DNA of 63,328 nucleotides, filler included, from Atractiella rhizophila (lineage: Eukaryota): assembly GCA_021432655.1 (NCBI GenBank). It is 4 parts of 3 records of this genome, joined end to end, with 100 filler letters (N's around TTAATTAATTAA, not from the genome) between each part and the next. Parts side by side here need not be neighbours in the genome. Positions count along the whole stretch, not along the records: positions 13,837 to 37,782 come from MU271594.1; 3 more parts are not named here. One strand, given 5' to 3'. The position numbers and the translations under genes are program-made. This document shows, piece by piece, positions 5,759 through 43,653 of this stretch (positions are counted from its first letter, which is position 1; each line of letters begins with the position of its first letter). Below the pieces are notes generated by a model. The model saw only the letters and a program-made list of their open reading frames with translations. It had not been told where the DNA came from and did not search any database.

Positions 5759-6410
5759 CGATACGATTAGGTCTGCTTTTGCAGGCTATGAGTTTCCTGC
5801 CATCCGACAAAATCTTCGTCTGAGAACGACGGAGAACGGAGAACATCTCACCACTCATTCAACCCTGCGTAAACTCCAGCATCGTGTCAAAATAACTACT
5901 ACAACTTCTGTGCCTTCAGCTCGAGAGCTCGTTTCCTTTCCAAGTCGCCATGGTTTGCCCTCCTTAACGTAGTGTCACGCATGTTTATAACTCAGGTAGA
6001 AGTCAAGTTGGCTCTTTGTTAATCTCTGAATGTTATTGCATTAGGACAAACGGTACTGGTAAAAATCAGGTGAGCTGACCAACATATCGAGTTTTGTTGG
6101 AGCTTAGAAATTGATGATAAGTTGCTGCTTAGGCACTGTCACTTCTAGTAACGATCACATTGGCTAAGCTAAGAATTAGAAGCGTCTGTTAACACTGGTT
6201 AACATGTTTTAACCACTCCCACAATCCTTCTTCCCACTCCACTATTTAGGGATTAGTATTGAGGCACCAACCTTCTTGTCCAATAGAAAGCACCTTATTT
6301 GCCACCCAGCTAGTGAGCCGAAGTTATTGAACCACAACACCACGAGAGTCGTTGTTCTCTGCGTCTTTTCTCCAGCACCTACCAGTCGACTAAGCTTCCA
6401 TAATATCAAA

Positions 6411-7004
6411 ATGGCGATGGCTGCAAAACCTCAAGTTCGCACGGTTCCTCCAACTTTCCTCACAACTGACAGTAAGTGCAGGTGAAACTCCCACCAGATG
6501 TAAACCGCATATTATTCGTCAAAAACCTGAATTACAAGATCCGTGGAGAGGTTCGTTTGCTCTGTCGAAATGGAGGGCAGCGCCAATTCACTTTGGGGCT
6601 AGGACTTGTATGACCTCTTTGGGAAGTATGGAGCCATAAGGCAGATACGGTTGGGCAACGAGGCGAAGACGAGAGGCACTGCTTTTGTGGTTTACGAAGA
6701 TGTGATGGATGTACGCTCTTTCTTCCTGGTCATGTTGGGAGAGTTCTGTGTTGAGGTGGTCTGCCTGAAGGCAAAGAACGCGTTCGACCACTTAAATGGT
6801 TTCCATCTACAAGAGCGCTATCTCGTGGGTGCGTTACCTTCCTTGCTTCCCTTAGTGCATCACTCGCTAATCGATGGTCCGTCGACAGTGCTTTATCACC
6901 AACCCGCCAAACAGGCACTCAAAGTGGCGAATGCTGCTGAGCTTGCGAAGCGGGAAGAGGACTTAAAGGCTCTTAAAAAGAAGCATAATATAGGCGATGA
7001 TTGA
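6411..7004 (+). CDS. SF3B6: Spliceosomal branch-site protein p14 (SF3B6/SF3B14), copy 1, 5 exons
   Basis: Spliced product [94 protein letters not shown]..., the characteristic p14 RRM. Confidence 0.95.
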
Positions 7005-7388
7005 GGGTTGTAAATTTTGTTATTATTTCCCGTTGTGCAGTGTTGTAACACTATTTCATCTCCTACCACCGTGACACATCAAGCATTTTGGGAGTACTTG
7101 ACTTTCCTCGCTGCGCGACGCTCCTAGATAGTGTTCCTCAGTTGCGTAACATCTATGCATTCCATTCTCCATGAGACGGTATAGAAACGGATAAACAATC
7201 GCAATCGATCCAAGAAATCGAAGCCAAAAGTGCCGGTGGAAAAGAACGACAATAAAGTAACTGATCAATGTGAGTGACTCCCGAAATAAAACGAAATGAG
7301 ACTGAGAAGGAGACCGGTATACATCCTATCTGATCCTGGTTTTAGTTTGGATCTACTTCCAACAACATGCAGCTTGAAATTCACACAG

Positions 7389-7673
7389 GTTTCTCAACAA
7401 AACAGCGCTGAGGTCATAGCACTCAACAATGGCATGCGATACCTCTTCTCAGCCGTGGCCAGCGCGGCTATTCTCCCTCTCGTCAAAGCTGTGGGCGTAG
7501 GTCCGGCGAACGCAATGTCTGCCGGAATGGGATGGATTGGATGTGGCCTCGTTGTACTTGTATTGAGATATGGAAGGAGGATGAGGAATTGGATTGATGG
7601 GAAGAAGGAAGGAATGGAACAAGAGACGATGCAACAAATTTCGGAGGGGCATGTTGAAGATTCCAATGCTTAA
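7389..7673 (+). pseudogene. Orphan duplicate of the terminal MFS exon
   Basis: VSQQNSAEVIALNNGMRYLFS...EDSNA*, near-identical to 5474-5758 but with no upstream exons. Confidence 0.8.
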
Positions 7674-8363
7674 CGATACGATTAGGTCTGCTTTTGCAGG
7701 TTATGAGTTTCCTGCCATCCGACAAAATCTTCGTCTGAGAACTACGGAGAACATCTCACCACTCAGTCAATCCTGTGTAAACTCCAGCGTCGCATCAAAA
7801 TAACTACTACTACTTCTGTGCCTTCAGCTCGAGAGTTCACGTGCACCTTGATGCCATTATCTTCTATTGTGTCCTTTCCAAGTCGCCATAGTTTGTCTTC
7901 TTTAATACAATGTCACGCATGTTTGTAACTCAGGTAGGAGTCAAGTTGGCTCCTTGTTAATCTCTGAATGTTATTGCATTAAGACACACGGTACTGGTAA
8001 AAATCAGGCAAGCTGACCAACATATCGAGTTTGGTTGGAACGTTGGAACTTAGAAATTGATGATAAGTTGCCGCTTAGACACTGTCACTTTTAGTGACGA
8101 TCAGGTTGGCCAAGTTAAGAATCAGAAGCGTCTGTAACACTGGTAAACATGTTTTAACCACTCCCACAATCCTTCTTCCCACTCCACTATTTAGGGATTC
8201 GTATTGAAGTACCAACCTTCTTGCCCAATAGAAGCACCTTATTTGCCCCCAAGTGAGCCAAAGTTATTGAACCACAACACCACCAGTAACACCACGAGAG
8301 TCGTTGTTCTCTGTGTCTTTTTCTCCAGCGCCTACCAGTCGACTAAGCTTCTATAATATCAAA

Positions 8364-8959
8364 ATGGCGATGGCTGCAAAACCTCAAGTTCGCACGGTTC
8401 CTCCAACTTCCTTTACAACTGACAGTAAGAGCAGGTGAAACTCCCACCGGATGTAAACCGCATATTATTCGTCAAGAACCTGAATTATAAGATCCGTGGA
8501 GAGGTTCGTTTGCTCTGTCGAAATGGAGGGCAGCGCCAATTCACTTTGGGGCTAGGACTTATATGACCTCTTTGGGAAGTATGGAGCCATAAGGCAGATA
8601 CGGCTGGGCAACGAGGCGAAGACGAGAGGCACTGCTTTTGTGGTTTACGAAGATGTGATGGATGTACGCTCTTTCTTTCTAGTCATGTTCGGAGAGTTCT
8701 GTGTTGATGTTATCTACCTGAAGGCAAAGAACGCGTTCGACCACTTAAATGGTTTCCATCTGCAAGAGCGCTATCTCGTGGGTGCGTTACCTGTGGTGCT
8801 TCCCTCAAAGTGCATTACTTGCTAATTGATGGTCCGTCGACAGTACTTTATCACCAACCTGCCAAACAGGCGCTCAAAGTGGCGAATGCTGCTGAGCTTG
8901 CGAAGCGGGAAGAGGACTTAAAGGCTCTTAAAAAGAAGCATAATATAGGTGATGATTGA
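8364..8959 (+). CDS. SF3B6: SF3B6/SF3B14 p14, copy 2, intact
   Basis: Same exon structure and protein as copy 1; the coding differences I found are synonymous. Confidence 0.93.
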
Positions 8960-9601
8960 GCCTTGTAAACTTTGTTATTATTTTCGCTGTGCAATGTTGT
9001 AACACTATTTCATCTCCTACCACTGTGACGCGTCCATTTGTGTAAGCATTTTGAGAGTACTCGACATTCCTCACTGCGTGACCATTCTAGATATAGTATT
9101 CCTCAGTTGCGTAACATCTATGCATTCCATTCTCGATGAGACGGTATAGAAACGGATAAACAATCGCAATCGATCCAAGAAATCGAAGCCAAAAGTGCCA
9201 GTGGAAAAGAACGACAATAAAGTAACTGATCAATGTGAGTGACTCCCGAAATAAAAACGAAATGAGACTGAGAAGGAGACCGGTATACATCCTATCTGAT
9301 CCTGGTTTTAGTTTGGATCTACTTCCAACAACATGCAACTTGAACTGTTCACAGAGGAGGGGTATTAACATATCCGAATCGGCCCAAGAATCGCATCGCA
9401 TCGCTGAGTGAATTTGAGACGGGTATCGGCTTGCATTAATTTGACTGATAATAATCATGATGCTGATGCTTGTTGCTGGTTCGCAAACTATTCGACCGCT
9501 CAGACTTTAGCTCGTCCTCGGTGCTGTAATAGTCCACGACGTCCCACATTTGCCTTGTAAACAGGTCAAAGTCCATTCCTCAAGTGCATGAATGAACCAA
9601 C

Positions 9602-13736: not shown

Positions 13737-13836
13737 NNNNNNNNNNNNNNNNNNNNNNNNNNNNNNNNNNNNNNNNNNNNTTAATTAATTAANNNNNNNN
13801 NNNNNNNNNNNNNNNNNNNNNNNNNNNNNNNNNNNN
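13737..13836. other. Artificial contig linker (N run + TTAATTAATTAA + N run)
   Basis: Stop-in-all-frames 12-mer at 13781-13792 inside Ns; genes on both sides are cut off. Confidence 0.95.
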
Positions 13837-22342: not shown

Positions 22343-25300
22343 ATGCTGCCTCGTCGAATACCTCTGATTCAGCGCACCTACGCCTCCCACGCCCCTTCAG
22401 CAACACAGTCACGGACGCACCTCATACCGCCCTATTCCCATCTACAGTCTAATCTCTCGCGTGTGCGTTCAATTCTTAACCGCCCGCTCTCGCTGGCGGA
22501 GAAAATCATCTACTCCCACCTGTTACCTTCTTCTATCGAAGAACTGAAGGGGGATGGAGTCAGGGGAGAGAAGTACCTCAAATTAAAGGTGGATAGGGTG
22601 GCTATGCAGGGTCTGTTTGCTTTCTCTCTAACTCTACTTGTAAGCTCTAATTAACATTGTATTGGACATAGATGCATCAGCTCAGATGGCCATTCTGCAA
22701 TTCGCTACTACCGGAAAGATCTCAACCAGTGTTCCTGCTAGCATCCACTGCGACCATCTCATCTCGTTTGTCTACCGTCTTCCTTTTGCTCCGCAATTCT
22801 GCGGCTGAGCAGTAGCCTCTATTAGAGCATTCGAAGGCGCTGAAGCCGATTTGAAGCGTGCAGAGGTGTCAGAGAAAGAGGTATTCGACTTTTTAGAGTC
22901 TGCGTAAGCTTCACTACGCCCACACCTTAGAGCATTGACGAAATTCAAACCGTAGAGCAAAAAAGTATGGGATCGAGTTCTGGCGTCCAGGTAGCGGCAT
23001 AATTCATCAAATCGTGCTGGAGAACTACGCCGCTCCAGGTCTAATGATGCTCGGCACGGATTCTCACACCCCTAACGCTGGTGGTTTGTGCACGGTTGCT
23101 ATCGGAGTCGGCGGAGCAGATGCTGTGGATGCTCTCACGGATACACCTTGGGAGTTGAAAGGTTCGGGCTCTGTCGATTACTGTTTGCTCCCTTTTTGTG
23201 GCTCTGACTCCGTTTATGCAGCTCCAAAACTCATTGGTGTCCATCTCAAGGGAAAGCTTAGTGGATGGACGAGCCCTAAGGATGTCATTCTGGCTGTCGC
23301 CGGAAAGCTCACCGTGAGGGTAAGATTATGTTCGCATCTCTGGCCACTGAACTGACAAAACCCTTCGAAAGGGTGGGACTGGGAAAGTGATCGAGTATTA
23401 CGGACCAGGAGTTGAGACTTTCAGTGCAACAGGGACCGGGACCATTTGTAACGTTAGTCTTCACCTGACATCCCAACATTCTTGCGTGAATACTGATAGC
23501 CTTCCTCAATGATACACAGATGGGTGCAGAGGTTGGCGCTACAACGTCNNNNNNNNNNNNNNNNNNNNNNNNNNNNNNNNNNNNNNNNNNNNNNNNNNNN
23601 NNNNNNNNNNNNNNNNNNNNNNNNNNNNNNNNNNNNNNNNNNNNNNNNNNNNNNNNNNNNNNNNNNNNNNNNNNNNNNNNNNNNNNNNNNNNNNNNNNNN
23701 NNNNNNNNNNNNNNNNNNNNNNNNNNNNNNNNNNNNNNNNNTCGCTTACTAGCTGACATTAAGTCAAGTCCTCGTCGTTCCAACAATACCCTTAGCTGTA
23801 TGCGATTCTACTGGAATGTCGGATTGGTCGCTCCGACTTCCCGTCGTACAAGAGAACGGCTGGGAAGAGGTATTAACTTGATCAAAAGCCCAAGTTAAAT
23901 AGAAGGGTACGTGGATCAATCCTTGAGTGTAGCCATTGCTGGTAGGTAGGGAACAATAGGCGAAAGGTGGCGAACCGTTGAAGGCCCTAGCACGGGAGGT
24001 GGGGGTAGTTACCTGTTTCGTACTAAATGGAACCGACAGAGTAGCAAAACACCGTGGTTATTCCCACAAGAGGCGTTATAATGAATCCACTGGACGCGGT
24101 ATAGTCAACACTTGATCAATTTACAACTACCTTGTAGCCGCATGGAAATATGAAGTTGGGTGAAAGGCCGTCGCGATTAGAGTAGGCAGCATGTGAAAGG
24201 GGATTAAGATTAGTTCTGTCGATCCAGGAGCTTGAGGGAGAAGAGCGGGTGGCGGGTCACGCCAAGCTTTCCGAGGTCGTCGAGGTTAGCGCATCTAAAT
24301 CCTAGCTACTGCTAAAGTCAAAGGCCAACTCCTCGTCCGTACGAGACTCCATTCATCCTGCACAACGGAACGCACTTTGGAAGACTGCCTTCCACCTGTG
24401 GAAGACCTCCCCTCTTTGCCTTTCTGAGAGGCAACCCTTCTCCCTACGATAGACACTACCCTAACTTCCTCTCTGCTGGTCTTTTTCGGACGTGTGTGTA
24501 CTCTACCGTCCAGGGTAATAACTACCTTCTCTCGAATGGTATCGTCACTGTTACAGACCACTGCGCTCCTTCAAGTAACAGAAGGACAATGGCAGTAAGG
24601 AACGGAACTTTAAAGCCAACTTACTGCAATCTTACCGATGTTGTGCCCGCAGTAACCGCAGCCTTATAAGCTACGTCTTTATGGTAACAGAAGAGGAACT
24701 ATGAGGAAGGAGAGGGGTGACAGGTTATGTGCCGGGCGTCCGCAATCGGTTATGGAAGCGCGGACGTAAGAGGTACCGACGGATAGTAGTTCCTTTCTTA
24801 AAACAGTTAGTAAGACGAACATCACTTCCTCTTTATCCTTGATGTCTGAAAGTAGGGTAGGGAGAGCTCGCACCGTAACTAGTCGAGTGAGGGACCACAC
24901 TGGTTTTTCCCCTGAACTTGAAAGTTAGGAAAAAGTGAACGAACAAACTGTTCCCTTCACTGAGCCTGTATAGAAGTGAAAAGGGTAGCGGTCCAGTACT
25001 CAGGTTTGTTGGTACTTTCTCTTCCACTTTACCTCCCTCTTATTTCCCTGTATGATCCTTCTTAACCACGTCCTGGGTTACTCTCGTCGTGACTAGAGTA
25101 GGAAGGTAGGAAGAAGGACTTGCGCGAAGAACTTACGACTATCCGGTAATAACCGTATACACCGTTCGTAGTCCTTGATTCCATCATGCTTAAGTCATAT
25201 CTGATGGTCAAGCAGAAACAAATCTGAAGAAGCAAGGTGTCCTTCCGCTTACCTTTGCCAATCCATCAGACTACTCCAAGATCTCAGCGAAAGACGGTGA

Positions 25301-25552
25301 TATCGTGAGCACTGTCGGGTTGGAAGACCTGTTTTCTTGGTTCGAAGCTGGAAAGGACGGAGAACCGCCACAGATCGCGGTGAAGGTCACGCGGCGGAAC
25401 GGAGGAGAGGAAACGATTGCAGTTGAGCATACTCTTAGTAGGGATCAAGGTATGTTTGCCTGATCCGGTGTGCAAGGAGTGATATCTGACTTGGAGCAGC
25501 TCGCTGGATCGCCGCTGGGAGCGCACTCAACGTGATACGCCAAAACTCGTGA
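22343..25552 (+). CDS. ACO2: Mitochondrial aconitase family, ACO2 (homocitrate dehydratase) type; middle part gapped and mirror-reversed
   Basis: Forward: [48 protein letters not shown]. Read right-to-left without complementing, 25153->23742 gives IGSCTNSSY, RGKCTTDEISAAG, KYKGHL and NYGEGSAREHAA. Forward again: [13 protein letters not shown]. Confidence 0.93.
23742..25153. other. Mirror-reversed (uncomplemented) block inside ACO2
   Basis: Reversal yields aconitase exons with GT-AG introns and joins in frame to cgt ata cac (RIH) at 25154. Confidence 0.95.
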
Positions 25553-25711
25553 AGAAATGCAACTCGCATAAAACTTCACAAAAATGTAGATATACTAGAT
25601 TGTAGAGCAGGGCTAATCAAATTTCTTCACGCGATAGTTGAGTAAGCGACTTTGAGGAACATAAGAATTCACATAGCTGCTAGGAAAAATAAATCCTCTA
25701 TACAAGGGGTA

Positions 25712-27375
25712 TCAATCACAAACGGGCACAGAACGAACACGATTGCGGCCTATCTCATTGGGACGGATGACGCAGACTGAGCTCATAAAGTTTCTCCTCA
25801 TCCAAATCGTGCCTCCCTCTTCCCATCGAGTCCATCCCACCCATTCCACCAGGACTCTGATAATACCCATTAACTCAATAGCTCATCTTCTTCAGAAAAG
25901 GACGTACAAGTGAGATATCTGTACAAACTATTCGTTCCTCTCCTTCCACACAACTTTGGGTGAACGTAGTTATTGCCACTCCATGTGGATTCGGTCTCGA
26001 TGACTTGGATGCCCATAGTCCATCAACAACAAGTAGGCAAATTGGGAAGAAATAGGCGTACAGCTGCCGTCATCCTCTTACTCTCGAGCTCCATAGCCTT
26101 GCCTCCACTCCGGCCACCGCCGCTTCCTGAACCGGTGTACCTCCCTTGCAAGCTCTCCTTGAACCTTTCTCGTGCGAGTAAGAGGGTGAGGAGCGAGTTG
26201 ATGTAGAGAGGCGTGAGGCTGATATTGATGGCTACGTTCCACCCGCTCTGAATGGAGAGGAAGAGAATCAAATCGAGGATAGCAAGAATACTGGTCAGGA
26301 GATTCGTTTCGAGCGTTAATCGGATGATCCTCGAGATGATCGCTGTCGTGCCATTGAAGCCTTGTCGTGTTTTAGTCAAGTAGAATATCATCGATACCAC
26401 TTGGAGAAAGCAGTCAGTGAGAAGTCTGCGCTTTGCTCAGAGGATGGAGGCTCACCAATGATGAAATCTGCGAAAGTCAGTGAGCATAAACGTGAGAAAG
26501 GACGGAAGGAACGTACCAGCTAAACCCGCACTCAACAGCCACGAATAAGCCCCATAGGAGAAGGTATGAAACTCAGATTGCTTTTTGAGTATGAAGCCAT
26601 TCCTAATCATAGCACCAAAAGACCATCCCAGCTGGAAGATAGCGAGAAAGGTGACGATAATAGGGAAGATCTTCTTGCGACCTGAGAGGACGTATATCCG
26701 CCTGTGATGTACGTTTCGTTCAGTGGACTGCACAGAAACCGCGGTTGAATTGCTAGAAAGCAGGAATACGTACGATGCATACCAGATTTGTACGATTGCG
26801 GTTGTTAGACCTGCGAGGGGAAAGTTAAAGAAAGAAAGGGCATAAAAGGCAGACTAACCAAGGACGCCAAAATTTGCGCCATAGGAAAAGGGAACAATGT
26901 TGAACTCTTCAAGGTGGCCAAACTTGATGACGGTCCCTGTACGCACGGTTCACCAATCTGTCATGTTGAAAAGAATGATCGTACAATGATATAAATTATC
27001 TGTTCTGACGTGAGCAAAAGCGCCGCACAAAATTAAGGAAACTCACGGGAGGTAAAAATTACATGCAGGGTATTAAGAAACGCGAGGACCCCAACGACAG
27101 CTTTGATGCGCCAGCTGTCATTAGGATAATTATTAAAATAAGCGAGTGCTTGGTGCAGAGTCCATCCAGCTAGTTTCACCACATGATAAGACACAAAGGA
27201 GCTAGGTGAGAAAACCAACTCACAGAGAACGAAGGTGATTATCGATCCAACGCTGTAAGCACCGATCTAGTCCTCAATCCATTAACAATCTCCTCGGCAC
27301 AAAAGATTGACATAAGAAGAGAAGACACACGGTATCCCTCAACTTCGAATATGGAAACTCAATTTCAGAAGCCAT
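25712..27375 (-). CDS. Basidiomycete multi-TM protein, DUF6534-like
   Basis: QALAYFNNYPNDSWRIKAVV, RRIYVLSG, IISRIIRLTLETNLLTS and LYINSLLTLLLARE. Confidence 0.85.
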
Positions 27376-28125
27376 CTGAGCTGCACTCGTCCTGTCCCGA
27401 TTCACCCTTCTTGACACTCGAGGACACGATGTCTGCAAGTACGCGTGGAGCTTCTAATGCGAGAGAGGGCTGAAGAGAGCAGGCAGAGGTTTTAAGGCAC
27501 AATAATACACTCGTGCCACTCATCAGGGTCACACCACTTGTTCTCTAATAACTCAAGGCAACAGTCCGGATACTTGCGGATGCATTTGGACCGATCTGTC
27601 TCTCGATAACGATCGGCCAGCAAGATGAGCCTTGCTAGAACTGCTACTAAAAATTGGAGGCGATGGTCTGGGTCCGGTCCACAGAAACAATGGAGGTTGT
27701 TGACCAGACAACGTGCTTTGAATTTCAGGAACAATCTCTCCATCCTTCTTTCTTTCCTTTGCTATCTTCGATGAGCGTTCAACGCCGTTCCTGAGTGGAA
27801 CATGCAATTAGCAACGCGATGGCTGCTGGACAACAACAAATGGAACACACCAGTTCCGATTTCACACTCCAAAGCGGATAAAAGCCCCACCCTCCGACCC
27901 ACAAGCTATCTCTGAAGCCATCTCACCTCCCCGCCTGAAAGATGATGATCATATCCACTGCATAATGATCACTTCCTGTTCGCAAATTTGTCACGTGCCG
28001 CGGTTCCGCCAACATCTCCCGCCTGCGTGTTGCTGCCTTCTTTTGGAATTCTGTCACTTGTTTTGTTTGTTGGAGTTAGCTAGAGTCCGCCAGATTATCA
28101 CATATCATCTTAGTAACTCACTATC

Positions 28126-29413
28126 ATGCCCAAACGCAAACTGGATGCCACCGAGGCTGAACCAGAGGCACCCAGGCGGTCAGCGCGTTTGTCAGCCAAC
28201 CAGACGCCGTCAAATTCGACCACCAAGGCGACCAAAGCGCCAGCGAAGAAGATTAAGAAAGTAATTGAGAAAGTCAAGAAGACAATGTCGGGCCAAGATG
28301 ATGGATTGGAAGGCGTAACAGTAGTGGAGGTGCGTTTTTGGGACTGCAAATGGTGGCATCCCGGATGGAAGTGCGACAGTAATGGGTCGAAGCCGAGACG
28401 TTGTATTGCAAGCATTGGCATTAGTTAAAGTCTGTCTGCTAGTCGCTAAACCCAAAAGAAGCTATGTGTTGCTCTGCGTATTTATGCTCCTCCTAGTTAT
28501 CGCACAAATATACGCGTGGAAGATCTATTCGTCCTCCTAGATACGACAAGAGAGACGATGATATTCTTGTGCGTCAGATCTACATAGCATGCACAATGCA
28601 TATCTCAAAGCAGCAAACATCCAATGATACGATCTGCTCTTTGATCAAGTCAGTGCTTATTGAAAGTGATCGGATTGTCCATGATCGCCATGATTACAGC
28701 AATATTTTTGTGTTCTATGGTTCTTTGCTTTAGCACTGTCTCTCAAATATCTGCCTGGTGCAATCTCACGTTTGTGGCTAAGAGTTCATTATATCTAATA
28801 TCCCGTTGCAGGTCGGCGAGAAGATCCCTTCTTTGACTCTGAAGACAGACACTGGAGACGAAATCTCTACCACCGCTTTGGCTGGCGATAGGAAAGGGTC
28901 TGTCTTTGTCTCTTCTAATTGCCGATTTCAGTAATATGTTCGAATGCTGCGGTTACAGGTTTGTGATTTTCACCTATCCGAAGGCAAACACTTCTGGGTT
29001 AGTTGCCTTTTTCTTATCGAGAAGAACAAAGCCAATTCAATAGTGACAGGTGCACAAATCAAGCTTGCGGTTTCAGAGACAAACACGACCTCTTCTTGGA
29101 AAAAGGTTACGCCGTTCGTCTGACCCTGTCTTCTGCCGTCAATACCCGCTGATCCTCTTCACAGGTCTACGGCTTGTCTAAGGATTCTCCCGCTTCTCAA
29201 TCAAGCTGGAAGGAGGCTCAATCGCTGCCCTACACCCTCCTCTGCGACCCTAACTCGGAGTTGATCAAGCCTCTGGGTTGTTTCAAAGCTGGTGGAGGGA
29301 CGGCGAGGTGCCATTTCGTCTTTGATAAGGATGGAACATTGAAGGAGAAAAAACTCAATGTGAAGCCTGTGGAGAGCCCAGTGGATGCTTTGGAAAGCGT
29401 TGGGAAACTTTGA
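28126..29413 (+). CDS. DOT5: Peroxiredoxin Q/BCP (nuclear thiol peroxidase)
   Basis: Basic N-terminus PRRSARL; FTYPKANTSG|CTNQACGFRD (CxxxxC); VYGLSKDS; LPYTLLCDP; RCHFVF. Confidence 0.92.
28370..28598 (+). ncRNA. Candidate intronic H/ACA-type RNA in DOT5 intron 1
   Basis: Hairpin closed by gcgac/gtcgc (28373/28442), ANANNA aaaaga (28454), hairpin gctatgt/acatagc (28461/28582), then ACA at 28593. No target identified. Confidence 0.35.
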
Positions 29414-29699
29414 TTCATGGAAAGGAGAAGAATTGTTGTCCGCAGAGTTTGTGTGTTAAGAAATGTTCAAGGATTTGCGTCGATAATAGCATGTTGAATT
29501 CTCAATCACGAACCTGCACACTTTGAATTGTATTCACTTCTCGTTTCCACGACACTCGTGCATACATAATCAAATAACTGACGCAAACATAACATAAACT
29601 CTCCTTGAACATAACATAAACTTTCCTTGAAAATGAGCAGATCGAGTTCTTCCAACTTTGCACGTAGCCCTATGGGCTATGCTCTCCGTTTGACGGCGC

Positions 29700-31927
29700 T
29701 CACGGTCCCATGCTTCCGGAAACAAGGACGAGAACGATAGTAATGGCTGTAGAGCCAAGAAGAGAGATTCCAACGAGTTGATACAGGACGGTTTTAGGGA
29801 ATTTAACTTTGTAAAGTGGGTTCCTAGTTGGGTTGACATGATGCTTGTTAACCTTGTCGTCGTCGTCATCGGGCTCCTCAAACGTTTCTTGCAGCATTCC
29901 CCAATCATCGTTAGATAAATTGAGGTGGTGCTCGCCGTCCTCGGGGTGGAGGATGATTCGTCCCTTCGTGAAGTTTTCGACGGTATTAGAGATGATGCTA
30001 TCCTTCACGTAGTCGGCAGCGTCCCCAGGGATCTTGGTCACCTTCTTGGTCACGACTTCAAGAGTTGTAGGTTCCGACTGATCACCATGGATGTTGATGT
30101 GGTGCTCGCCTTCATCAGGATGAAGGTTGATTCGTCCCTTGGTATAGTGCTCCACGCCCTTTGACACAAGTCGTTCCGTGAACGTGATCTCTTCCTTAGC
30201 CTTCCCTTTACCAGACTTCTTCGATCCGTTGGACCTCGTCGACGCCGCATCAGTCTCTCTCTTGTCGGTAAACTGGATAATGTGTTCTCCTTCCTCCGGA
30301 GTCAAATCCACCAATCCCCCCGTCAATACTTCAATCTTGTCCGCTACCTTGTCTCTCCTCCTCGATCCGTTCGACTTTGTCGATTTCGCATCGTCATCCT
30401 TTCCTCCATTCGCAATAGGTTCCTTTGCATCCCTCACGTCCTTCACGTCCTTGTGGACTATGGTCGTCTCTCCCTCCGGAGTGTGGATCTGGATTATCTT
30501 CCCCCCCTCGCCCTCCTCTGGGTTAAAGTCGATGTGACCGTGCGTAAGCTCCTCAATCTTATCAGCGACTTTATCCCTCTTTCCCCTCTGCGATGAAGCG
30601 TCGTCGTCCTTTGCCTTTGCATTCCCGGAGTTCGAACCGCTTGATCCCTCCTTCTTATCCTCCCTCTTCAGATCGCCGTCGTGCTCATTCCCGAAATTAA
30701 AGTGATGTTCCCCCTCATCCGGCTTCAGATTGATTCTCCCACCAGTAACGTCCTCAATCTTATCCGAGATCCTATGCTTCATCGACGGTGCCTTTGAGCC
30801 AAAATTAAAGTGATGTTCCCCCTCATCCGGCTTCAGATTGATTCTCCCACCAGTAACGTCCTCAATCTTATCCGAGATCCTATGCTTCATCGACGGTGCC
30901 TTTGAGCCCGACCGAGAGGTTCCGGGAGAACGAAATCGTCCAAAGAGCTTGTGGTAAGCGCTTCGGGACTCTTTGGCCCAAATACTTTCAGAGCGAAGGA
31001 TGGCGATGGAAGTGAGACCAACGAAAGGCCAGAGGGAGAAGAAGACCAAGGCAGCGTAGGGGACGATGGGGATGAAGATCAACGTGTTAGTAAAGGCGAC
31101 GATCGCGCTAGCCAAGTGGGAGAAGAAGGCGATTGCATAAAGGTATTGTTGGCCATAGAGTAGGAGGAGCGCCTACCCAATACATCAACGTCCGTTTTCA
31201 ATAACGGCTTCATGCGCATCGTGGGAAGAACTCACCATGAACACATCGTTTCCACCACCGAAAAGCGCGGCCCACACGAAGACCGTCTGCATCGATCCCG
31301 AAAGAAGGGTGGACGTATAGAGCACAAAACCCCATAACCAAGCAGCAAAGAGACCTATAGGAGCAGATTGCTTCAAGAGGAGAGAAGTTATGAGGATCTC
31401 AATTTGACTGCCATGAAAGGTCCGTCAATTATGGTATAGGTTTTATAGAAGAAATGGGGACGTACGTGTGGAAGACGGCAAAGATGAATGTGAGACGGGA
31501 GGTGTGACCAGCTTGGAAGTGAAGGATCGTGCTATATCCTCTTTCTGCTCAAAGCACGTTCCCGAATTAATTGATTTAGACAAATACACACCCAAATATT
31601 GAGACCTATCGCCCCCGTGAGCTATCACATTTCAAACAAAGAATACTCACCGACAGCATCCACAACACCGTCAAATGTGGGAAGTTCCAGTGAATCCGAG
31701 CCTTGCGCGTATAATAAAGGATGACGGCCGCTCCAGTTATTGGTCCGAAGAGGGAAACGATAAGGAGGGCATCACGGATGTGATTCTCGAATGACGGCCG
31801 CTCCAGTTATTGGTCCGAAGAGGGAAACAATAAGGAGGGCATCACGGATGTGATTCTCGCGCGGCGTGAGGTAGGGATAACCATTGTGAGCTGGCACGAT
31901 GGTGTCGTTCGTGATGTGAATGCCCAT
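29700..31927 (-). CDS. Multi-TM protein with a large repeat-containing hydrophilic loop; exon 1 frameshifted as assembled
   Basis: ATG 31927 (MGIHITNDTIVPAHNGYPYL), hydrophobic spliced exons, then a 471-aa final ORF with six E..T.G.I.L.P.EGEH repeats and a C-terminal TM helix. Confidence 0.75.
30691..30908. repeat. 108-bp near-exact in-frame tandem repeat (36 aa x2)
   Basis: GSKAPSMKHRISDKIEDVTGGRINLKPDEGEHHFNF occurs twice; units start near 30694 and 30802. Confidence 0.95.
31721..31859. repeat. 70-bp tandem duplication with one internal mismatch
   Basis: atgacggccg...gtgattctcg at 31721 and again at 31791. Confidence 0.95.
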
Positions 31928-32282
31928 ATTCGCAACCTGTGTCGATACACTCGTCCTGGACTGATATGCCAGTCGAAGGCGAAGAATTGCGAGAGGGTTC
32001 TTTCACTCGGCTTTAGCTCTTTATAGTGCACAAAGGAAACTGCACCGACGGACGAAAATCAGCTGGAATTTCGACCGCCAAGGAGACAGCAGCTCCGTTC
32101 AAGTTACTTCCAGCAACTTCCACACCCGTAAATATTCCCCTGATCCCCCTGGTCCTTATCCAGCTCTATCGGTACAGATTCGAGCTCTGCCTGAAGGCAT
32201 GAAAGAAAGCGAGAATGTTCTCCGATGCTTGGCGTTTACGCGGGATCTGGCAAGAAATCACATGATCAACCACGACTTCGCG

Positions 32283-33178
32283 ATGGACTCACTTCCTCCA
32301 GAACTCGTGTATCACGTACTCAGCACTCTTCCCGCTCTTGACCTCGTACGCTTTGTTTCGCCCGTGTGCAAGGACTGGAGAGAGATTGCTGTGTCCCTCC
32401 TCAGGCGTCGATTGCTGGTTTTGTCCCGTGCCAATGATGGCAATGAAGATGAGGAGAATACCGTTAGGATCGTGGTGCGCTTTTCTGTTTTTCGTACAAT
32501 ATGGACAGAGAAATTGATGAGGATAAATAAAAGTTCCATCTTCATGTCGTCAGCACCCATGCTACATACATCTACCCCCTCACATTCTCCCACTTCCTCC
32601 CCAACTCACCTTGCAAAGCGTTGTTTCTCTTCCCTCCTTCAACACGAGAGGGAACCAACCCTATAATAGTTCCACTTGATGAATACGAGTCTTTTGCGAA
32701 CGTGTACATGACTCTCAGTCTCAAAGCATCACCTGGAAAATCCAACCCCAACAAAAACAACAACAACGGACCCAGTACCTATGCCGGAAATAGATTAGAG
32801 AGAAGGATATTGACTGATGGTGGCACCTGGAATGGACTGCCAAGATATGGCTACCAGATCTACATCGCTACCGGACACGACAGGGTCTGGAAAGACTGGT
32901 GGAGCACCTGTTCGGAATCCTCTCCCAGCTCAGAACATGGACTTCCCCTCCAATCACTTAGAACCGACTCCTCCCTCGGTCATCTCCGCATCTCTCTCCT
33001 TCACCCGATCGACCTCCATCCGGTCCGGGAAGGTGGAGGTGGAGAGAGAGGCTTCAGGTTCTTTGCGAAGGAGATGGAAGTGGAGACCGCTCGTGCTGTT
33101 GTTGGATTGGAGATGGAGTTGGAGAAGAGGAAGGATGGTGTGGCTTTGGTTCATGTACAGGGGTTACCCAGGGCTTGA
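32283..33178 (+). CDS. F-box protein
   Basis: MDSLPPELVYHVLSTLPALDLVRFVSPVCKDWREIA is an F-box; one intron near 32475-32533. Confidence 0.85.
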
Positions 33179-33667
33179 CCGTTTAAAGAAGACTTATAGT
33201 GTGTTGTCATGTTTTGGACACAAAACAGGAGAGTTCTTTCTTCTATGATGAAAAGGAGTGTGCGGAGACATCTCTGGATGACGACAAAAAGTGTCAACGA
33301 TAAGAGCTGTACAATATGTAATATGCTTCGTTTAATAAACCGGTCCTTTTATCCATACAAGTCAAGTCTGTCAATCAAGATTACAAGACGGAACCGGGAC
33401 CAGAGGATAGGATGCAATAATGATATTCTCTGCAAAATCCAAAATCCTATGCTACAGGGCACCCCAGTAGAGGTAGCAAACAAGACGACGAAACGATACA
33501 GAGAAGTTCGAATTGAACTGGTTGCTGTAACTGTGCAAACACTGAGACTAATGGCGAATCTGACAACTCGTGGGTATCGCTAGAAATTACTCGTAGAGAA
33601 GTGAACAGCGGCGAGCATCTATAAGTTGGGCGGCTCCCGACTCCAATGAAAACAAAGGTGACATGCA

Positions 33668-34439
33668 CTACCGCGTCCCGACAGGATCCACGTTCTCCTG
33701 CTCATCTTTACTCTTTCTCTTCGCCCAATCCCAACTCATCCTCTTCAAATTCCAACTCGTACTCTTCTTCTGCTTCGCAGCCAATCTCTCCCTCTCCTCC
33801 CTCTCCAACATCCTCTTCCACCTCCCCTCCTCCACATCCAAAATCTCTTCCAATTCCTCTCCTTCGTCCCTAAGCTTCCAATCGAGATTCGCAAACATCG
33901 ACAGCTGCATATCTCTCAACTCTCGAAGCGTCAACATCCCTTGAGAAGCGATCGACCAGCTCTTTAAACTGTAAGCTTCATCGTGCAGATAGTTGCAGCT
34001 CATGATCGTCGCCGTGAGGAGCAGACGATGATGGAAGTCAGCTGGCGCAGGAATCTTCTCGTCTGTCCTCCAATAGCGCGCTAGACGACGAAGGAGGTGG
34101 CAGGCGAAGAGAACGGTGAAAGTCGGGAGGTCGGTGCGATACAGGGCGTAAGCGTAGAATTGGGGAAGAGGGGGTGGGCCTGGTCTGCGACCTGGGAGAG
34201 ATAGACGTTTCGGGAAGAGGGAAACAACCAGCGCCGATGCGTAGGCAGTTATATCTGCTCTCATCGTCAGATGGTTCTCTTATACAATCACAGGAAAACA
34301 TGAACACACCTCGGTAGCCATATAAGGAATCGTCAAGTGTGACTGATGACCGTTTCGTGGATAAGGAACCCCTCCTCTTGATTGAGAAAGCCTCCATGGA
34401 CGCGCTGTCCTTTGGTTTAGGATCTGTCGCAGCCACCAT
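33668..34439 (-). CDS. Cyclin-fold protein (PCL/PHO80-like)
   Basis: LPQFYAYALYRTDL..FACHLLRRL..HRLLLTATIMSCNYLHDEAYSLKSW..LRELRDMQLSMFANLDWKL. Confidence 0.85.
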
Positions 34440-35590
34440 TATTGCGATTCGGCAGCAACGTGAGATGAACGAACAAATGATCCCCAACGTTAAGAGAACA
34501 GCCGGGTTTTTGAGTGAAAAATTCAAGTGACACCCGGCGAGACCCGCGAGTGGAGCCGTCTCAGTCAGGACGCTTTTCGGTGGTCGACTCAGTCGGTAAG
34601 TCAGAAAGTGGAGTAGATCACTGTAACAACAGCCTGTAGGATATAAGCAGCGCGGTAAGGACCAGAGACCGGGATTGGGACACCTAAAAGACTTGCCTCT
34701 CACCTCCACCTCCACCACCTAAATCAGAGGGAGCTATTGCTACTCTGGAATATTCGATCCGACGTTCCAAATGATGAGGATGTTATATCTCGGAGTTTAA
34801 ACGCAGAAAGATGAGTAAAGCGGCGTTGAGTAAAGCGGCGGCAAAGGGGCGGCAGGAAGCGGCAAAGTCGCGAAATCGGAAAGGTTAACCAACACGCCAA
34901 CTGTTCTCGTACTTAGCTTGAATAATGCCAATATGGTCGTTCGAAGCAGGATAGCAGCAACGAGGGGCACGCGACTTTTGTAGAGATCAAAGAACCGGAT
35001 CCGGATTCAACAAACAAAAACAATTCCCTCCCTGTCATCATGCTTGCTCTTCGACGGCCGACTTCTATTGAGGCTTTCTGCAACTTGCAACCACATCCGG
35101 TCACAAATGGGCAGAAACAGAAAGCCTGCAGACAAGATGCAGTGCAGAAAGGATCAAAACCCAGAGCCAATTCTAGTACAACAATAACAAAGACGACGCT
35201 AACGCCGAAACGCCGAACGCCGAACGTCGTGGATTTTCTGGTAGACAACATGCTAATGGAAAGTAACTTTCCTGCTGCTTGCTATAATATATAATAAAGG
35301 TGCAACTCGCACAATCATAGCAACGTCCGAATAGCAGCGTAACTCTGTCTCGTTGAAGGTGCTGAGTGGACGGACCTGCTTAGACTTGGTCACTGGCACA
35401 ATAAAGCTCCTCGGCATTTCCGCCGTCCAAGAAAAGATATTAAATTGTAGTGGCAGCAGGCTCTCATGCCTCCCGGGTCAGCGATCCATAAAAGGCGAAT
35501 GCATTCCTGTTACAGCCTCCTAAGCGTTTCCTGCGAAATCATCCAGCAGAAGGATGGACATTACCATACATATCTTGAATCTTGAATGTA

Positions 35591-36588
35591 TTATGTAAGA
35601 ATAATGGCTATCAAAAGGATACAGAGAACTATGATGAGGATGAGGACACACCACGAGGACTTATCATCTGCAGCCAACAATTCTCGTCATTATCCTTTCC
35701 AAACCTAGGGGAGTAAAATGGAGAGAAAAGAACGTACTGCGATTGTCCTCTATAAACTTATTCATCAACTTGCTAGCCCTGCCCATCCGACCCTCCGTGC
35801 GATCTACACTGCGCGAGAGGTCATCGACCAGTTCCACCTGCTCATGTATCTCCCTTCCCATAACCTGCGCCTGCTCCCTCAATATACCCACCGTGGACCC
35901 CAATGCTCGTAAGGGTATTATCTTGGCTCTGCATCAACAGCGTCTGTGTTTGTCGTTCATAATAGTGGGGCAGCAGGGTCGTCATCTTCACCGTTGGGAG
36001 GAGGAGGGCTGGTGGGAGTGTGAATCGGGTGGGTACGGTGGATACGAGTTGGAGCCAGACGCGGGGAAAGAGGTGGAGTAAGAGGAGAGGGGATGAGTGG
36101 AGGACGAGGGTCGGCTTCCGAATGATGCTCGGATTGTCTTGTACTCGCCTTAAGCCAGTCATCAGCATGTTTGCAGGAAAGCTTACTTCACAGTCTTTCT
36201 GTACTCGTTTGACGAAAGCTCGTCTCCTCCGCACCTGTCATCCAACAATTCCGTCTCCCAAACCGCAAACTAGGCAGAAAGAACATACCTCTTCGACTGG
36301 CACTCCCATCCTCTCCGCCATCCCCACACTCTCTTCTACATCCCTCACATCGGCCTCTACGCTCTCTAATGTCCCAAAAAGTTCCTCCCTTGCCGTTCTT
36401 AGCTCTTCAGAAGAGCCATGGTGCGATGAAGGTAAGGTGGCTTGAATCCGGTTGTACGATGCGTGAAGCTGATGGAGCGTTTGGAGCAGTGATTCTATTT
36501 CACTTTCGAGAGTAGAGTATTGGTGTCATACAGAAGACAACGAATAGGACACTCACGCCTTTACCTCGTAATATGGATCTTGGGACAT
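35591..36588 (-). CDS. TLG1: Qc-SNARE Tlg1/syntaxin-6
   Basis: MSQDPYYEVK N-domain, RRRRAFVKRV, QTLLMQSQDNTL..GSTVGILREQAQVMGREIHEQVELVDDL and a C-terminal TM. Confidence 0.9.
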
Positions 36589-37078
36589 GTTGGAGCCAAC
36601 GCATCGTGGCAGGAGGGTTGATGTGAGATGATGACAACTGGCAGTTCTCGCTCAGCTTGGTTCCCTCTGTCCAGTGTCAAGAGCAATGACGATTTGAGGG
36701 CTTTGGTGACAGGATTTGGTGGGTTTGGTGGGTTTCCGGCGCCTGAGACCCCCTTTCGAGTCCGGAGCAGGAACAAGATTGGGTTGATTTGAGTGATGAG
36801 TGAGGTCAGTGAGCTGCCTTCAAGTTCAGGTGAGCATGAGATGAAGCCCGTGAATCAAGTGAGGGATCATAATACCGATTACACGTTTCCTGTGCACGAA
36901 ATCTCATGGGAGAATTCCTGGAGAGAACTGGTTAGTTGTAACCTTCCCCATTTCAGCTCTCGCGTTTGTGCTTCCGAGATCAAAACGACTTTCCAAGCAA
37001 GTTTGAATCCCAGACTCACGCGAGTTAGCTCTTTATTTTGTTCGGGAGACATGGGGTTTCTGTACTGAGAAATTTCTA

Positions 37079-37782
37079 TTCTGATAATAGCGCAATATTG
37101 AACACTTTGGCGTGTTACAGGAGGATGGTTTGCTGAAGGCTAGCTACTGTGCCAACATGTAGCTGCAGTGTTTCGTCAATATTACTAGAATGAAGCGCTG
37201 TAGTTCTCCATCTGGCCACATCGAAGCGATTCAGGCGCGTAATGTAACGCTCTTGATTTCGAATACGCCGTCGTGTCCTCTTCTTGTCCTTTATCGAATT
37301 TATCAATCATCGGCAAATATAGCACTTCCCTCGGTAGCTCGTATGGCTCTTGCCGTATAGATGCTTCCTTCGTCAACAGTTGTTCGCAGAACACTGGCAT
37401 CGGATATCGCGATTCCTCCCGACTGGTGACACTCTTAATCGGAACCAGTGCTCCCGCCGAGTGAGCTCCAGCTAGATGGAGAGGAACACTTCCGTTTCCT
37501 TGCACGGATCTCATCGTCAGCGAATGCGATCCAGTTAGGCTTTCCTTAAAAATTGGGCAGTCCCTCTCGATTTTTGAGGAATTGGTGCGAGTACCAGACA
37601 TAACACCTATAGCTTGACTGTCATTAACAATGGCGGCTAACGTCGGAACTCTTTCTTATACTGCTGCTTATGGGTTCGTCTCTTTACTGTAACTTTTAGT
37701 ACCTCCATCCGTCTAAACAATTGTTCGATTCTAGCCCACAACTCATTGGACGTTAGTGTTTCGTTAACGCTCCATATTCAAG
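37079..37782 (+). repeat. Diverged copy of 41331-42045 (promoter and first exons of the downstream membrane-protein gene), cut by linker
   Basis: Colinear match from ttctgataatagcgcaatattg onward; ATG at 37630 (MAANVGTLSYTAAY) corresponds to ATG 41892. Confidence 0.92.
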
Positions 37783-37882
37783 NNNNNNNNNNNNNNNNNN
37801 NNNNNNNNNNNNNNNNNNNNNNNNNNTTAATTAATTAANNNNNNNNNNNNNNNNNNNNNNNNNNNNNNNNNNNNNNNNNNNN
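37783..37882. other. Artificial contig linker
   Basis: TTAATTAATTAA at 37827-37838 inside Ns. Confidence 0.95.
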
Positions 37883-40800
37883 GGGATAGGAGTAGTGACA
37901 GGTGTGGTAGTCCTAGTCCTCTCCTACCCATACTAGCCCAAAGAAGAAGTGACATGAGGAGTCGCCTCCCACTTACGACAGAGGTTACAGCAACTCGACC
38001 AGCACTACTATATCTATCACTTCTCGAAGCTGTCACGACGACTGTGACTGCACCTCGGGATCAACTAGAACAGAGTACAACTCTACCTCATCCACCTCAT
38101 CCTAATTTTGTACGTCCCGCAACGGAGAGAGAATGTCCAGCTGGGACCATATCACCACGGAGGACGACGTCTGTAACTACGGCAAACCTAGCTGCGAGAG
38201 CTAAAGAACAAACTAAAGAGACTTAACGTGCACCGTACTCTCACATCGAACGACGTGTATTGTTTTTACTATACTCACTTCTTATATATTCGGTCTCAGG
38301 TGTGTGGATACGAAAAAAAAACGAACTAAACTAAACTACGATTGTCCGACTCCCTATGATACCATCTGACAATCCTTCGTATAAAACACCACTTTCTTTG
38401 ACAAAGTGAACGTACTTACGAACGAAGTGAAAGGGAGTATCAACCGTTTGTTGTCAAAAACCGCGTACTGTACTCTTTCAGAGTCTTTCGAGACTTCTTT
38501 AATCTTTTAACGCCCGTGCGTCAAACGTGTGTTATCCTAAACCGTCACTGTTTTACACTGTACTGACTTTTTAGCTTGGGTGTGGTTTGTGGTTAGTCGG
38601 TTCTGAGTTGATGGGTTGGTATGTGGTTGATGTGGTAGCGCGTTTTGAGACATGGAACAACGGCATAAACCATCAATTCCTTTTAAAACAGTTTCACGGC
38701 TTCAGCCAGTGAACCGAGTCAGTACCTTCTGTTGATAAAAAACAGGAAATTTATTCGAAATAACATATGCCAACCTTTCCGCGACTGTGCGCATAAGACC
38801 ACCATACGAGTCTTAAAATTCCCCCAACAACACCTGGTTCTTCAGTGTACATTAATCCTGTTGTTGCGAGGCGAAATAAGGCAACATCACTGTCCTGCAT
38901 TCAACTACTCACCTGATATGGATCTTGAGGCACACCACCTCTCTACTTGGGGATTACTTTGTACACATTGCAAAGCCTTTCATTGGATGGAAGAGAAGAT
39001 CGTTAACAGCCCACAACAAAATCCAAAGTTTGCATTGTGCTGCCTCCACAGCAAGGTGCTGCTAGCTGTTCCTCCACCTCCACCTGAAGAGCTACGAAAG
39101 CTTTTTTACACATGACAATACAACAGGTAAGTATTTCTATTCAATTTTTTTTGCATATACATATCTGAGAGGAACAATCATTATAGAGTCAATGGCATTT
39201 CGAGAGCATATCAGGATATTCAATAATGCTTTTGCATTTACATCCTTAGGCGTCCGCCAGGTATCAATTCCTGGACATGGTCCTTACTCCTTCAAAATTC
39301 AGGGAGAGCTGTGCCACCTTATTGGCACTCTTTTACCACAACAAGAAGGGTGTGAAACATTTGCGCAGGTCTACATTACAGATTCAGCTGTACAGACTGA
39401 ACGAAGAGTTGGCACCACTTCAATATCACTGAATCGTAGGACGCTTGAAGACCTTCAGGCTATGCTCTTCCGTGTCAACCCATATCCTAGGATCTACAAA
39501 TTTGCAAAAGAAAGAATGGAACAGGATCCCACTACAACACTACATCTTCACACAGTCGCCCCACGAGATAGGGACCCAAAACGCTACAACATTCCTGTAG
39601 CCAGTGAAGTTGCTGTAATGAGGTAGGAGACGGTAACAGAGAAGAATATGAAGTGGCCAGAGATATTGTCATCCAGCTCAGGGCAACCAGGACCGGTAGC
39701 AACTTACAGCGTGTGAATGAGCTCAACTCAAATTATCTTCCACTTCGTTTTCCTCTTCTGTTTCCATATGGGGACCAAGGATGGCATCCGCAGATTCCAT
39801 ATCGAGACCACCTGCCTGCAGATCTTCCTGTCGCGAGCGAGAGCACTTCAATGATGACGGCATGCAAGTTGGTAATTCTGGGGTTCGACAACGTGTCCGC
39901 CAAATGGAGTTCTATTCTTACATGTTGCATCAACGAAATGATATATTCTCACTCCCTCTCTACGGTGGTCGGCTACTGCAAGAATTGGTAGTCGATGCTT
40001 ATGCTCAAATTGAGGCGAATCGACTCCGCCATCTGCTGTTCAATCAAGTCTACTCTTCGAGCCGAGGTGTATCAAGGTCTTACGGATGCCCTTGCAGAAG
40101 GCTATTCTTTAGAAGATATCGGGAGGCGGACTATATTACCATCAAGTTTCACTGGCAGTCCACGTTCAATGAATCAGCTGTTCCAGGATGCAATGACTAT
40201 AGTTGGTGCCAAAGGACCCCCAAATATCTTTACAACCTTCACTTGCAACCCACACTGGGCAGAGATCACGGAAGCCGTCCTACCAGGACAAAAACCAGAG
40301 GATCGACCAGATTTGGTTTCAAGGGTTTTTCGACTGAAGGCTCTGGAGTACATCAAGGATTTAGTGGTACGACAGATCTTTGGAAGGGTTATCAGATATG
40401 TCTGGGTCATTGAATGTCAGAAGATAGGTCTACCACATGCCCACATCATGTGGATGGCATCAACGATCACTTGATTCAGTGGCTCAAATCCATAGGAGAT
40501 CGGGTATATTATAGTACAGATCAAATTATAGATGACGAGGGAGATCTCAGAAATCGCTTCTCTGTCGAGTACCTGAATACCCTGGAGATCTCTGGATTCC
40601 CTTCGCATTGTTTACACCTCAAGACCGGTGCACCCATCATTCTTCTGCGAAATCTCAATCCATCTGCTGGCCTGTGCAACGGCACACGGCTCATTGTCAC
40701 TCAGCTTCTCCGACGAGTCATCGAAGCAACCATCATTACAGGTACACACAGTGGCGAATCAGTTCTCATTCCTCGAATTGGCATTGACAGTGCAGTATCA

Positions 40801-41330: not shown

Positions 41331-41891
41331 TTCTCATAATAGCGCAATATTGAACACTTTGGCGTGTTACAGGAGGATGGTTTGCTGAAGGCTAGCTACT
41401 GTGCCAACATGTAGCTGCAGTGTTTCGTCAATACTACTAGAATGAGGCGCTGTAGTCCTCCATCTGGCCACCGAAGCGATTCAGGCGCGTAATGTAACGC
41501 TCTTGATTTCGAATACGCCGTCGTGTCCTCTTCTTGTCCTTTATCGAATTTATCAATCATCGGCAAATATAGCACTTCCCTCGGTAGCTCGTATTGCTCT
41601 TGCCGTATAGATGCTTCCTTCGTCAACAGTTGTTCGCAGAACACTGGCATGGGATTTTGCGATTCCTCCCGACTGGCACGCATATTGGGAACCAGTGCTC
41701 CCGCCGAGTGAGCTCCAGCTGGATGGAGAGGAACATTTCCGTTTCCCTGCACGGATCTCATAGTCAGCGAACGAGATCGCTTGGCTCTTTAAAATGGGCA
41801 GGCCCTTTAGATTTTTTTTTTTGGAGGAATCGGTGCAAGTGCCAAACACAAGAATCATTAACACCTTTAGCGTGACTGTGATTTTATAGTA

Positions 41892-43653
41892 ATGGCCGCT
41901 AACGTCGGAACCCTTTCTTATACTGCTGCTTATGGGTGCGTCTCTTTACTGTAACTTTTAGTCCGTGCACCCGCCTAACCACGGTCCTAACCTAGCCCAC
42001 AGCTCATTGGCCGTTAGTCTTTTCGTTAACGGTCCATATTTAGGGAGTGTGTTTGAAAAAGCATGATAGTGGTTTTCGAAGGAATGTTTGGTGGAGCCGT
42101 AGCGTGGAACGCAATGATTTACTACACCACTTATCCCAAAGACACTTGGTACATGAAAGTCCTCATCATCATTTTATTCGGGCTCTGTCTTTCCGCTCTT
42201 GCATCCGGGCTTGTCGGTACGATACTCTTTGATGACATGTCATGGACCACTGACCACTGACGGTGATGCCACTTCCAGCGCTGTGGCATTTTACAATATA
42301 TGGAGCGGATCATCCTGACCTTGGTGAGTGATACTTCGTCTTCTCATACATTGTTCTGAACCTTTTAGTTTTTTCAAACATTCCTGATGGCGTTGTACGC
42401 TACCAAATCCTTGTACCTGTGGTATGCAGCTCCCGTCTTCCCGCCTTTCACTTGACCTGACCCAATCCCTCAGTTGAGCGCTTTCTTCTCAGAACTGTAC
42501 TTTGGATGGCGCTGTTTCAAATGCAAGTGCCACCATTCTCGTTTCGAGTCAAGCTCACTCCTATGGTTGTTCAGACACTCACAAGAACATCTGGATCGGT
42601 ATCTTGGTCGGGGTAGCCATTCTCTTCTCCTTCGCTGGAGGAATCGCTGCTTGGGTTTACCTTTCGTTCGCTTGTCCCTACATGACCTTTCTCCATCATT
42701 AACAGAACCATTAGCTTTACAGGAAGCAATCCACTTGACGATCCGGTGAAGGAAGAAGATCGGCTTCGCCGCCAGCGACTCCTGTAACCTCAGTCACAAC
42801 AAGCGTTACCAAGACTAATTGGGCTGACAGGATTCAACTCGAATACTTCTCGATGGCAATCACAGACATCATTATTTCCGTCATTCTGACGGCCAAGTTG
42901 AAGAAGGACCAGCATGGTTTTAACTGGAGGTAATACACATTCTTCCCAGTCTGATAGAACGTTGACACCGAGGCGAAGAACTGACAAGCTACTTGGGCGA
43001 CTACTTTCGCTCTCGCTCACTTCGGTGAGTTTAATACCTTTTACCTCTAGTGGGAACGCTCTGACAGATGCCTTAGGCTGCTTTGACTTCGTATGTCTCG
43101 CACATAGCTTCCACCCTTTTCATTAGATAACACCCTACAGGATAACGGCTATTTTGACTGCGATCCTTTATGTCCGAACGAGCCAGCACAACAATGGTAA
43201 GATTCCCTATCTTCCTTTCAATTCTCTGAACGAAAAGCTCACATTGTCACAGCCTATCTCTCCTTTGCTAACTTGCTACCCTCCCTTTTTGCGCTCTCCA
43301 CAGTCTACACACTGAACATCCGGGATTCGTTAAGGGAGATGTGGAGCCACAGTCACAGTCATTCGCTCACGACCAGCCAGACGAACCACACCCGAAAGAC
43401 GACGTTCGCGCTCGCCTCCAGACTCTCCCGTCCGGCCGTTCACCAGCCATCCAATTCGGGAATTCAGGTTCATGTCAGCACGTTGCGAGATCAGGATTTT
43501 CATGAGAAGGACGACTTGGATCCTGTGGACTCCATACATCTTAAAGTATGTGTCCCCATTTATTAATACTCGTGATACCATGTAGCTTAATTCTGCCTCA
43601 CGGCTTTGTAGCAAGTGTCTCCGAGACCTCCTTCTCCATCTGGACAGGTTTAA
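41892..43653 (+). CDS. Multi-TM basidiomycete protein (DUF6534-like), many small exons
   Basis: FEGMFGGAVAWNAMIYYTTYPKDTWYMKVL, SAFFSELYFGWRC, TDIIISVILT and LPSLFALSTVYTLNIR. Confidence 0.8.

Follow-up and report, generated by a model that had tools for sequence, protein, structure and literature searches.

Scaffolded assemblies often contain contigs in the wrong orientation beside gaps, and database entries that were deposited reversed only or complemented only are known from the orientation curation of rRNA and ITS marker genes. The feature examined here, a 1412-nt block of the deposited Atractiella rhizophila assembly whose letters are reversed but not complemented, shares traits with both. 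Like mis-oriented contigs and false inversions at scaffold gaps, it lies beside an N gap, breaks a gene model and was made by software; mis-oriented contigs, however, are reverse complements that can be recognised on the other strand, whereas a mirrored block is recognisable on neither strand. Like the reversed-only and complemented-only entries, it represents half of a reverse complement and yields no match until it is reversed again; those entries, in contrast, are whole submitted records, while here internal blocks of 0.2 to 1.4 kb sit in an otherwise correct scaffold. Literature listings and the opening parts of abstracts held no account of such a reversed-but-not-complemented fault in genome assembly. 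The gene hidden by the artefact is, for its part, an ordinary member of the mitochondrial aconitate hydratases, for which structures are available (1ACO, 5ACN, 1C96 and others); set against these, the enzyme has nothing unusual, and the error is confined to the way the assembly represents it.

Layout and identity of the aconitase locus

The window, that is, the whole stretch of A. rhizophila DNA analysed here (63328 nt), contains three 100-nt linkers, at 13737-13836, 37783-37882 and 53137-53236, each composed of 44 N, TTAATTAATTAA and 44 N, in which TTAATTAATTAA is a 12-nt six-frame stop motif acting as a spacer. The proteins P0001 and P0128 are both recorded on one contig of 40998 nt, yet a linker separates their loci in the window; the two pieces that carry these loci total 39300 nt together with the linker.

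An earlier note had described 23742-25153 as 1.4 kb of aconitase sequence written as a mirror image, and the coordinates it gave for the block were exact: positions 23549-23741 are an N run, and the 1412-nt block abuts this run directly, on its right side. The locus is laid out as follows.

22343-23548, + strand: true exons of the upstream part of the aconitate hydratase gene, from tblastn with P0002 and exact P0001 segments, both in the printed + reading
23549-23741, no strand: assembly gap of 193 N, where P0002 residues 286-348 are absent
23742-25153, + strand: mirrored block of 1412 nt, encoding P0002 residues 349-691 from 25153 down to 23742
25154-25549, + strand: true exons of the downstream part of the gene, ending at the last codon matched by P0001 and P0002

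When the first exon (22343-22609) was used as a query, two A. rhizophila proteins were returned. P0001 (434 aa; named 'aconitase iron-sulfur domain-containing protein') is 100% identical to this exon, and its residues 1-284 correspond to the printed exons at 22343-23548, which stop at the N gap. P0002 (786 aa; named 'aconitate hydratase') lies on another contig and is 98% identical to the exon. In Pfam, P0002 scored 452.2 bits with Aconitase (PF00330) and 124.3 bits with Aconitase_C (PF00694), both above the gathering scores, and the match of the corrupted P0001 to PF00330 stops after the first 236 positions of the profile. Residues 26-783 of P0002 aligned with the pig and bovine mitochondrial aconitase structures, the best solved relatives, at E values of about 1e-251. 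The name ACO2 used in the earlier note is thus apt for a mitochondrial-type aconitase, given the pig and bovine matches, and in no other sense. The P0002 residues missing from the locus would amount to 63 aa, or 189 nt if they were intronless, nearly the size of the 193-N gap.

The block encodes aconitase when reversed without complementing

As printed, the block contains 17 to 28 stops per frame and its longest open stretch is 117 aa, in agreement with the claim that no six-frame ORF explains it, while plain reversal opened stretches of 186 and 146 aa, and every peptide that the earlier note had quoted was present in the reversed translation. A tblastn search with P0002 against the printed window covered 380 of the 786 residues, all of them outside the block; inside 23742-25153 as printed, no aconitase HSP was found on either strand. 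With the block reversed in place, coverage rose to 718 of 786 residues with a chain E value of 1.5e-147, and the aconitase alignment that the earlier note had expected after simple reversal was thereby obtained. The reversed block contained 11 exact-match segments of 5 to 110 aa, and 328 of the 329 residues in these segments were identical to P0002, itself aligned end to end with solved mitochondrial aconitases; the family membership of the window's own aconitase copy rests on this 328/329 identity. When the mirrored window was compared with the printed window by blastn, there were no hits, and therefore the block is no copy of other sequence in the window.

Reading from right to left, seven introns of 47 to 75 nt with GT..AG ends, the kind announced in the earlier note, lie inside the block. 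Three of them restore P0002 exactly and two do so with a single differing residue; of the other two, one was obtained jointly with the genuine intron at 25164-25212 and one was identified by eye. The reversed block closes, at 23742, with a short exon that is in frame with the codons from 25154; the proposed junction at 25154 is exact. The genuine downstream part (25154-25549) includes the intron at 25164-25212 and another around 25449-25498.

Relative to P0002, the block carries five one-base frame slips, near window positions 24968, 24715, 24158, 24048 and 24004, each of which is located at a homopolymer run. This suggests a fill of lower, error-prone quality, although genuine differences between this gene copy and P0002 are conceivable as well. 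At the far tip of the extension, the two letters with which the reversed block begins do not agree with the P0002 codon expected there.

Read contigs carry the un-mirrored order at the junction

For 23742-33741 of the window, 24 sequencing runs were listed, among which two DNA runs from one sample contained a fraction of 0.73 of the sampled words and a third contained 0.39. Contigs of three runs, X1, X2 and X3, and of the root metatranscriptome run X5 were compared with 23742-37782. Record 1 of X1 (DNA, 1754 nt) fitted 25154-26679 from record position 229, and record 8 of X2 (DNA, 3780 nt) fitted the same interval from record position 2255. Before 25154, the loose ends of the X1 and X2 contigs gave a 30-letter consensus that is the exact reverse of 23742-23771; as 30 letters were compared for each contig loose end, the read evidence directly covers the junction rather than the whole 1412 nt. 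In X3, the loose end before 25216 consisted of the un-mirrored exon end, the un-mirrored last short exon and 25154-25163. This run behaves like RNA, showing GT..AG joints, one of which spans 25447-25498.

The earlier note had predicted that raw reads would match the un-mirrored version, and the contigs of X1, X2 and X3 do carry the un-mirrored order at the junction. The organism's DNA has this order, and apparently its transcripts do too. The three runs may come from the source sample of the assembly itself, and the contigs are to be taken as same-strain evidence and not as independent replication. The three bins over 23742-25148 had no cover from four runs, and the other 27 bins were covered by X1 and X2; this absence of contig cover was not counted as evidence, and the loose ends were used instead. 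When metagenome contigs were compared with the exon at 25215-25448, the top identity among the best 80 of 582 confirmed stretches was 56%, and no Atractiella-like metagenome contig was present among these best 80 of 582 relatives of the exon.

The downstream acceptor site has a tandem AG, 3 nt apart: the spliced X3 contig resumes at 25216, and the intron that reproduces P0002 ends at 25212. The annotated protein may have one residue more than the transcript at 25213-25216.

Mirrored blocks occur at all three plain gaps of the window

Each of the three plain N runs in the window has a mirrored block on exactly one side (3/3), to the right of the gap once and to the left twice. The two further blocks lie in unrelated genes.

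48032-48245, + strand: second mirrored block (about 214 nt), gene for a haem-peroxidase/P450 fusion; borders the gap of 685 N at 48246-48930
54950-55727, - strand: third mirrored block (778 nt), gene for a NOG2-type nucleolar GTPase; borders the gap of 258 N at 55728-55985

The second block, whose left edge may be off by a few bases, was recognised with P0129, a 1067-aa protein from another A. rhizophila contig. Its residues 676-700 (48185 down to 48111) and 701-710 (48060 down to 48031) found exact matches only in the reverse reading, and in the mirror reading the two segments are separated by a 50-nt GT..AG intron and preceded by a 60-nt stretch ending in AG.

For the third block, residues 1-88 of P0025, a fragment from another A. 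rhizophila contig, matched in five exact segments from 55129 to 55727, only in the complement (mirror) reading, with the last segment ending at 55727; from residue 89 onwards, P0025 follows the printed - strand from 54949. These matches therefore place the block at 54950-55727. Three distant NOG2 homologues (P0014, P0023 and P0029) matched the printed sequence below 54949 and at 56247-56456, while their residues from about 126 to 302 matched only the mirrored window, at 54899-55449, with E values of 1e-22 to 1e-28. Frame slips relative to P0025 are found in this block as well.

Second gene copies and repeats in the window

All three genes have a second copy on another A. rhizophila contig (P0002, P0129 and P0025). 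Exon 1 of the aconitase gene is 98% identical between the copies, and the exact exons of the other two genes are mostly 96 to 100% identical. From sequence comparison, the region seems to be present in the assembly twice, as diverged copies that are either haplotypes or the result of a duplication.

Several repeats were also recorded. A tandem duplication of about 2 kb comprises 5465-7389 and 7380-9357 (90% identity), and a direct repeat of about 700 nt comprises 37079-37778 and 41331-42040 (88% identity); around 37531-37700 the read contigs break or diverge. At 31721-31859, a 69-nt unit is repeated in tandem with 98.6% identity, and 70 nt of this stretch (between 31720 and 31791) are missing from the contigs of X1, X2 and X3 alike. 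Either the assembly has one extra unit relative to the read contigs or the repeat has been collapsed in the contigs.

The k-mer direction of the block is reversed

Genomes are symmetric under reverse complementation and not under plain reversal, which is the basis of the k-mer direction score used here. A strand-symmetric Markov model was trained on the rest of the window, and the score was expressed as the log-likelihood of the printed sequence minus that of the reversed one. The block scored -30.5, -30.9, -29.6 and -25.9 at orders 2, 3, 4 and 5, respectively, versus +26.3 ± 8.3 (minimum, +4.0) for 72 other 1412-nt windows at order 2, and none of these 72 scored as low as the block at any order from 2 to 5. 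In a further scoring, the block gave -35.8 versus a background of +36.2 ± 9.0. All three mirrored blocks were flagged by the test, the second with z = -4.8 and the third with z = -5.1, while the opposite sides of the three gaps scored normally (z = -0.4, +0.8 and -1.3).

Negative scores were also obtained for 37589-37782 and 41865-42042, which are copies of one 88% repeat and lie partly under read contigs, and another flagged segment, 5858-6399, sits in the 2-kb tandem duplication. Because segments of repeat families also score negative, the k-mer test taken alone is not specific. The segment at 37589-37782 was rejected as a mirrored block, being an 88% copy of 41331-42040 with a loose end that is not the reverse of 37782 downwards; the read contigs diverge at 37700, and the signal probably reflects a repeat-caused contig break together with a k-mer false positive. 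As repeats, 41865-42042 and 5858-6399 were likewise treated as k-mer false positives. Two other segments, 37883-38597 (z = -5.6) and 53237-53510 (z = -6.3), each start just to the right of an artificial linker and, on their k-mer scores, may be further mirrored extensions.

The mirrored sequence is present in the public assembly and its gene models

P0001, the public model of the window's aconitase gene, maps onto the printed sequence over 433 of its 434 residues. Within the mirrored block, this includes three exact forward matches.

24210-24284, + strand: spurious P0001 exon 1, residues 285-309
24514-24573, + strand: spurious P0001 exon 2, residues 310-329
24976-25002, + strand: spurious P0001 exon 3, residues 331-339

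It follows that the mirrored sequence was already there when the genome was annotated, which places the error in the deposited assembly. The block had been said to hide real exons from gene callers, and this is what happened in P0001, which splices the three forward-read exons through the block. At the second gap, the public model P0128 (796 aa) goes directly from 48040 to 48933, and compared with P0129 it is short of about 270 residues.

Origin of the mirrored blocks

Taken together, the 23742-25153 block is almost certainly an error of the deposited A. rhizophila assembly and not the organism's DNA, most plausibly an artefact of gap extension. The earlier note had proposed a software error in which an extension was reversed without being complemented, and this explanation is backed by the junction contigs, by the contact of the block with the N gap and by the two further blocks. 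A finishing or gap-closing step would have extended the right-hand flank (25154) leftwards into the gap by 1412 nt, using lower-quality sequence as fill, and would have stored the letters reversed and not complemented, anchored at the correct flank; that is, only half of the reverse-complement operation would have been applied. The true + strand DNA would then run from 25153 down to 23742 and contain the exons for the middle and the C-terminal part of an aconitate hydratase of mitochondrial type, with the remaining 193 N representing about 63 codons still absent. The two remaining plain gaps of the window would have been hit by the same fault, again in extensions from one side, and since left-flank and right-flank extensions are both affected, it would not be tied to one side. 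A long-read gap filler is a possible source. The data show the reversal itself, the exact junction on the right, the presence of the block in the public assembly and the recurrence of mirroring; we infer an origin of the blocks in gap extension and of their letters in error-prone reads.

Three other explanations were weighed against this assembly error. The mirror might have arisen after deposition, when the window was prepared or concatenated, with the public assembly being correct. The three artificial linkers do show that some post-processing occurred; the mirrored blocks, however, adjoin plain N gaps and not linkers, P0001 with its three forward exons in the block can be derived only from the printed, mirrored sequence, and P0128 likewise makes its jump from 48040 to 48933. 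We consider a later origin very unlikely. Less probable still is a contig placed in the wrong orientation, which would make the block an ordinary reverse complement, or a chance resemblance. Misplaced contigs of this kind are frequent beside gaps, but tblastn of the printed block on both strands gave nothing, only non-complemented reversal restored the protein, and the block was not copied from elsewhere in the window, as the blastn comparison gave no hits. Chance is excluded because of the E value of the restored alignment and the k-mer direction score.

It is just as improbable, at less than one chance in a hundred, that the block is real DNA in which rearrangement or pseudogene formation produced a same-strand mirror of the aconitase exons. 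The five frame slips could be read as pseudogene decay, and otherwise it is the printed sequence itself that speaks for this explanation. The earlier note had pointed out that DNA inversions give reverse complements, and the reverse-complement reading of the block was in fact devoid of aconitase matches in tblastn; known recombination and inversion yield reverse complements, and we know of no process that copies DNA with reversed polarity. Moreover, the read contigs show un-mirrored letters at the junction, the spliced X3 contig joins un-mirrored exons to 25154, and mirroring is also found at two other gaps, in unrelated genes. An assembly error thus remains the explanation that we adopt.

Consequences for public data

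The feature is a software artefact, of low biological interest and of practical value for curation. Mirrored blocks constitute a detectable class of assembly error: they are invisible to BLAST and to gene callers on both strands, and the k-mer direction score offers a cheap screen for them. In the window, residues 285-339 of P0001 are invented, and a partly false protein is now in the databases; the NOG2 gene is disrupted, and the P0128 peroxidase/P450 model is shortened.

We consider it slightly better than an even bet that the fault is systematic, in that one finishing step mirrored every one-sided gap extension in this assembly and possibly in others made with the same pipeline version. If this is true, dozens to hundreds of blocks of 0.2 to 1.5 kb, and the gene models overlying them, would be corrupted in public data, and such blocks could be found by a simple k-mer direction scan beside N runs. 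In one phylogenomic study (PMC13347111), the A. rhizophila genome is the sole representative of Atractiellomycetes, and because of this, corrupted orthologues can enter the alignments.
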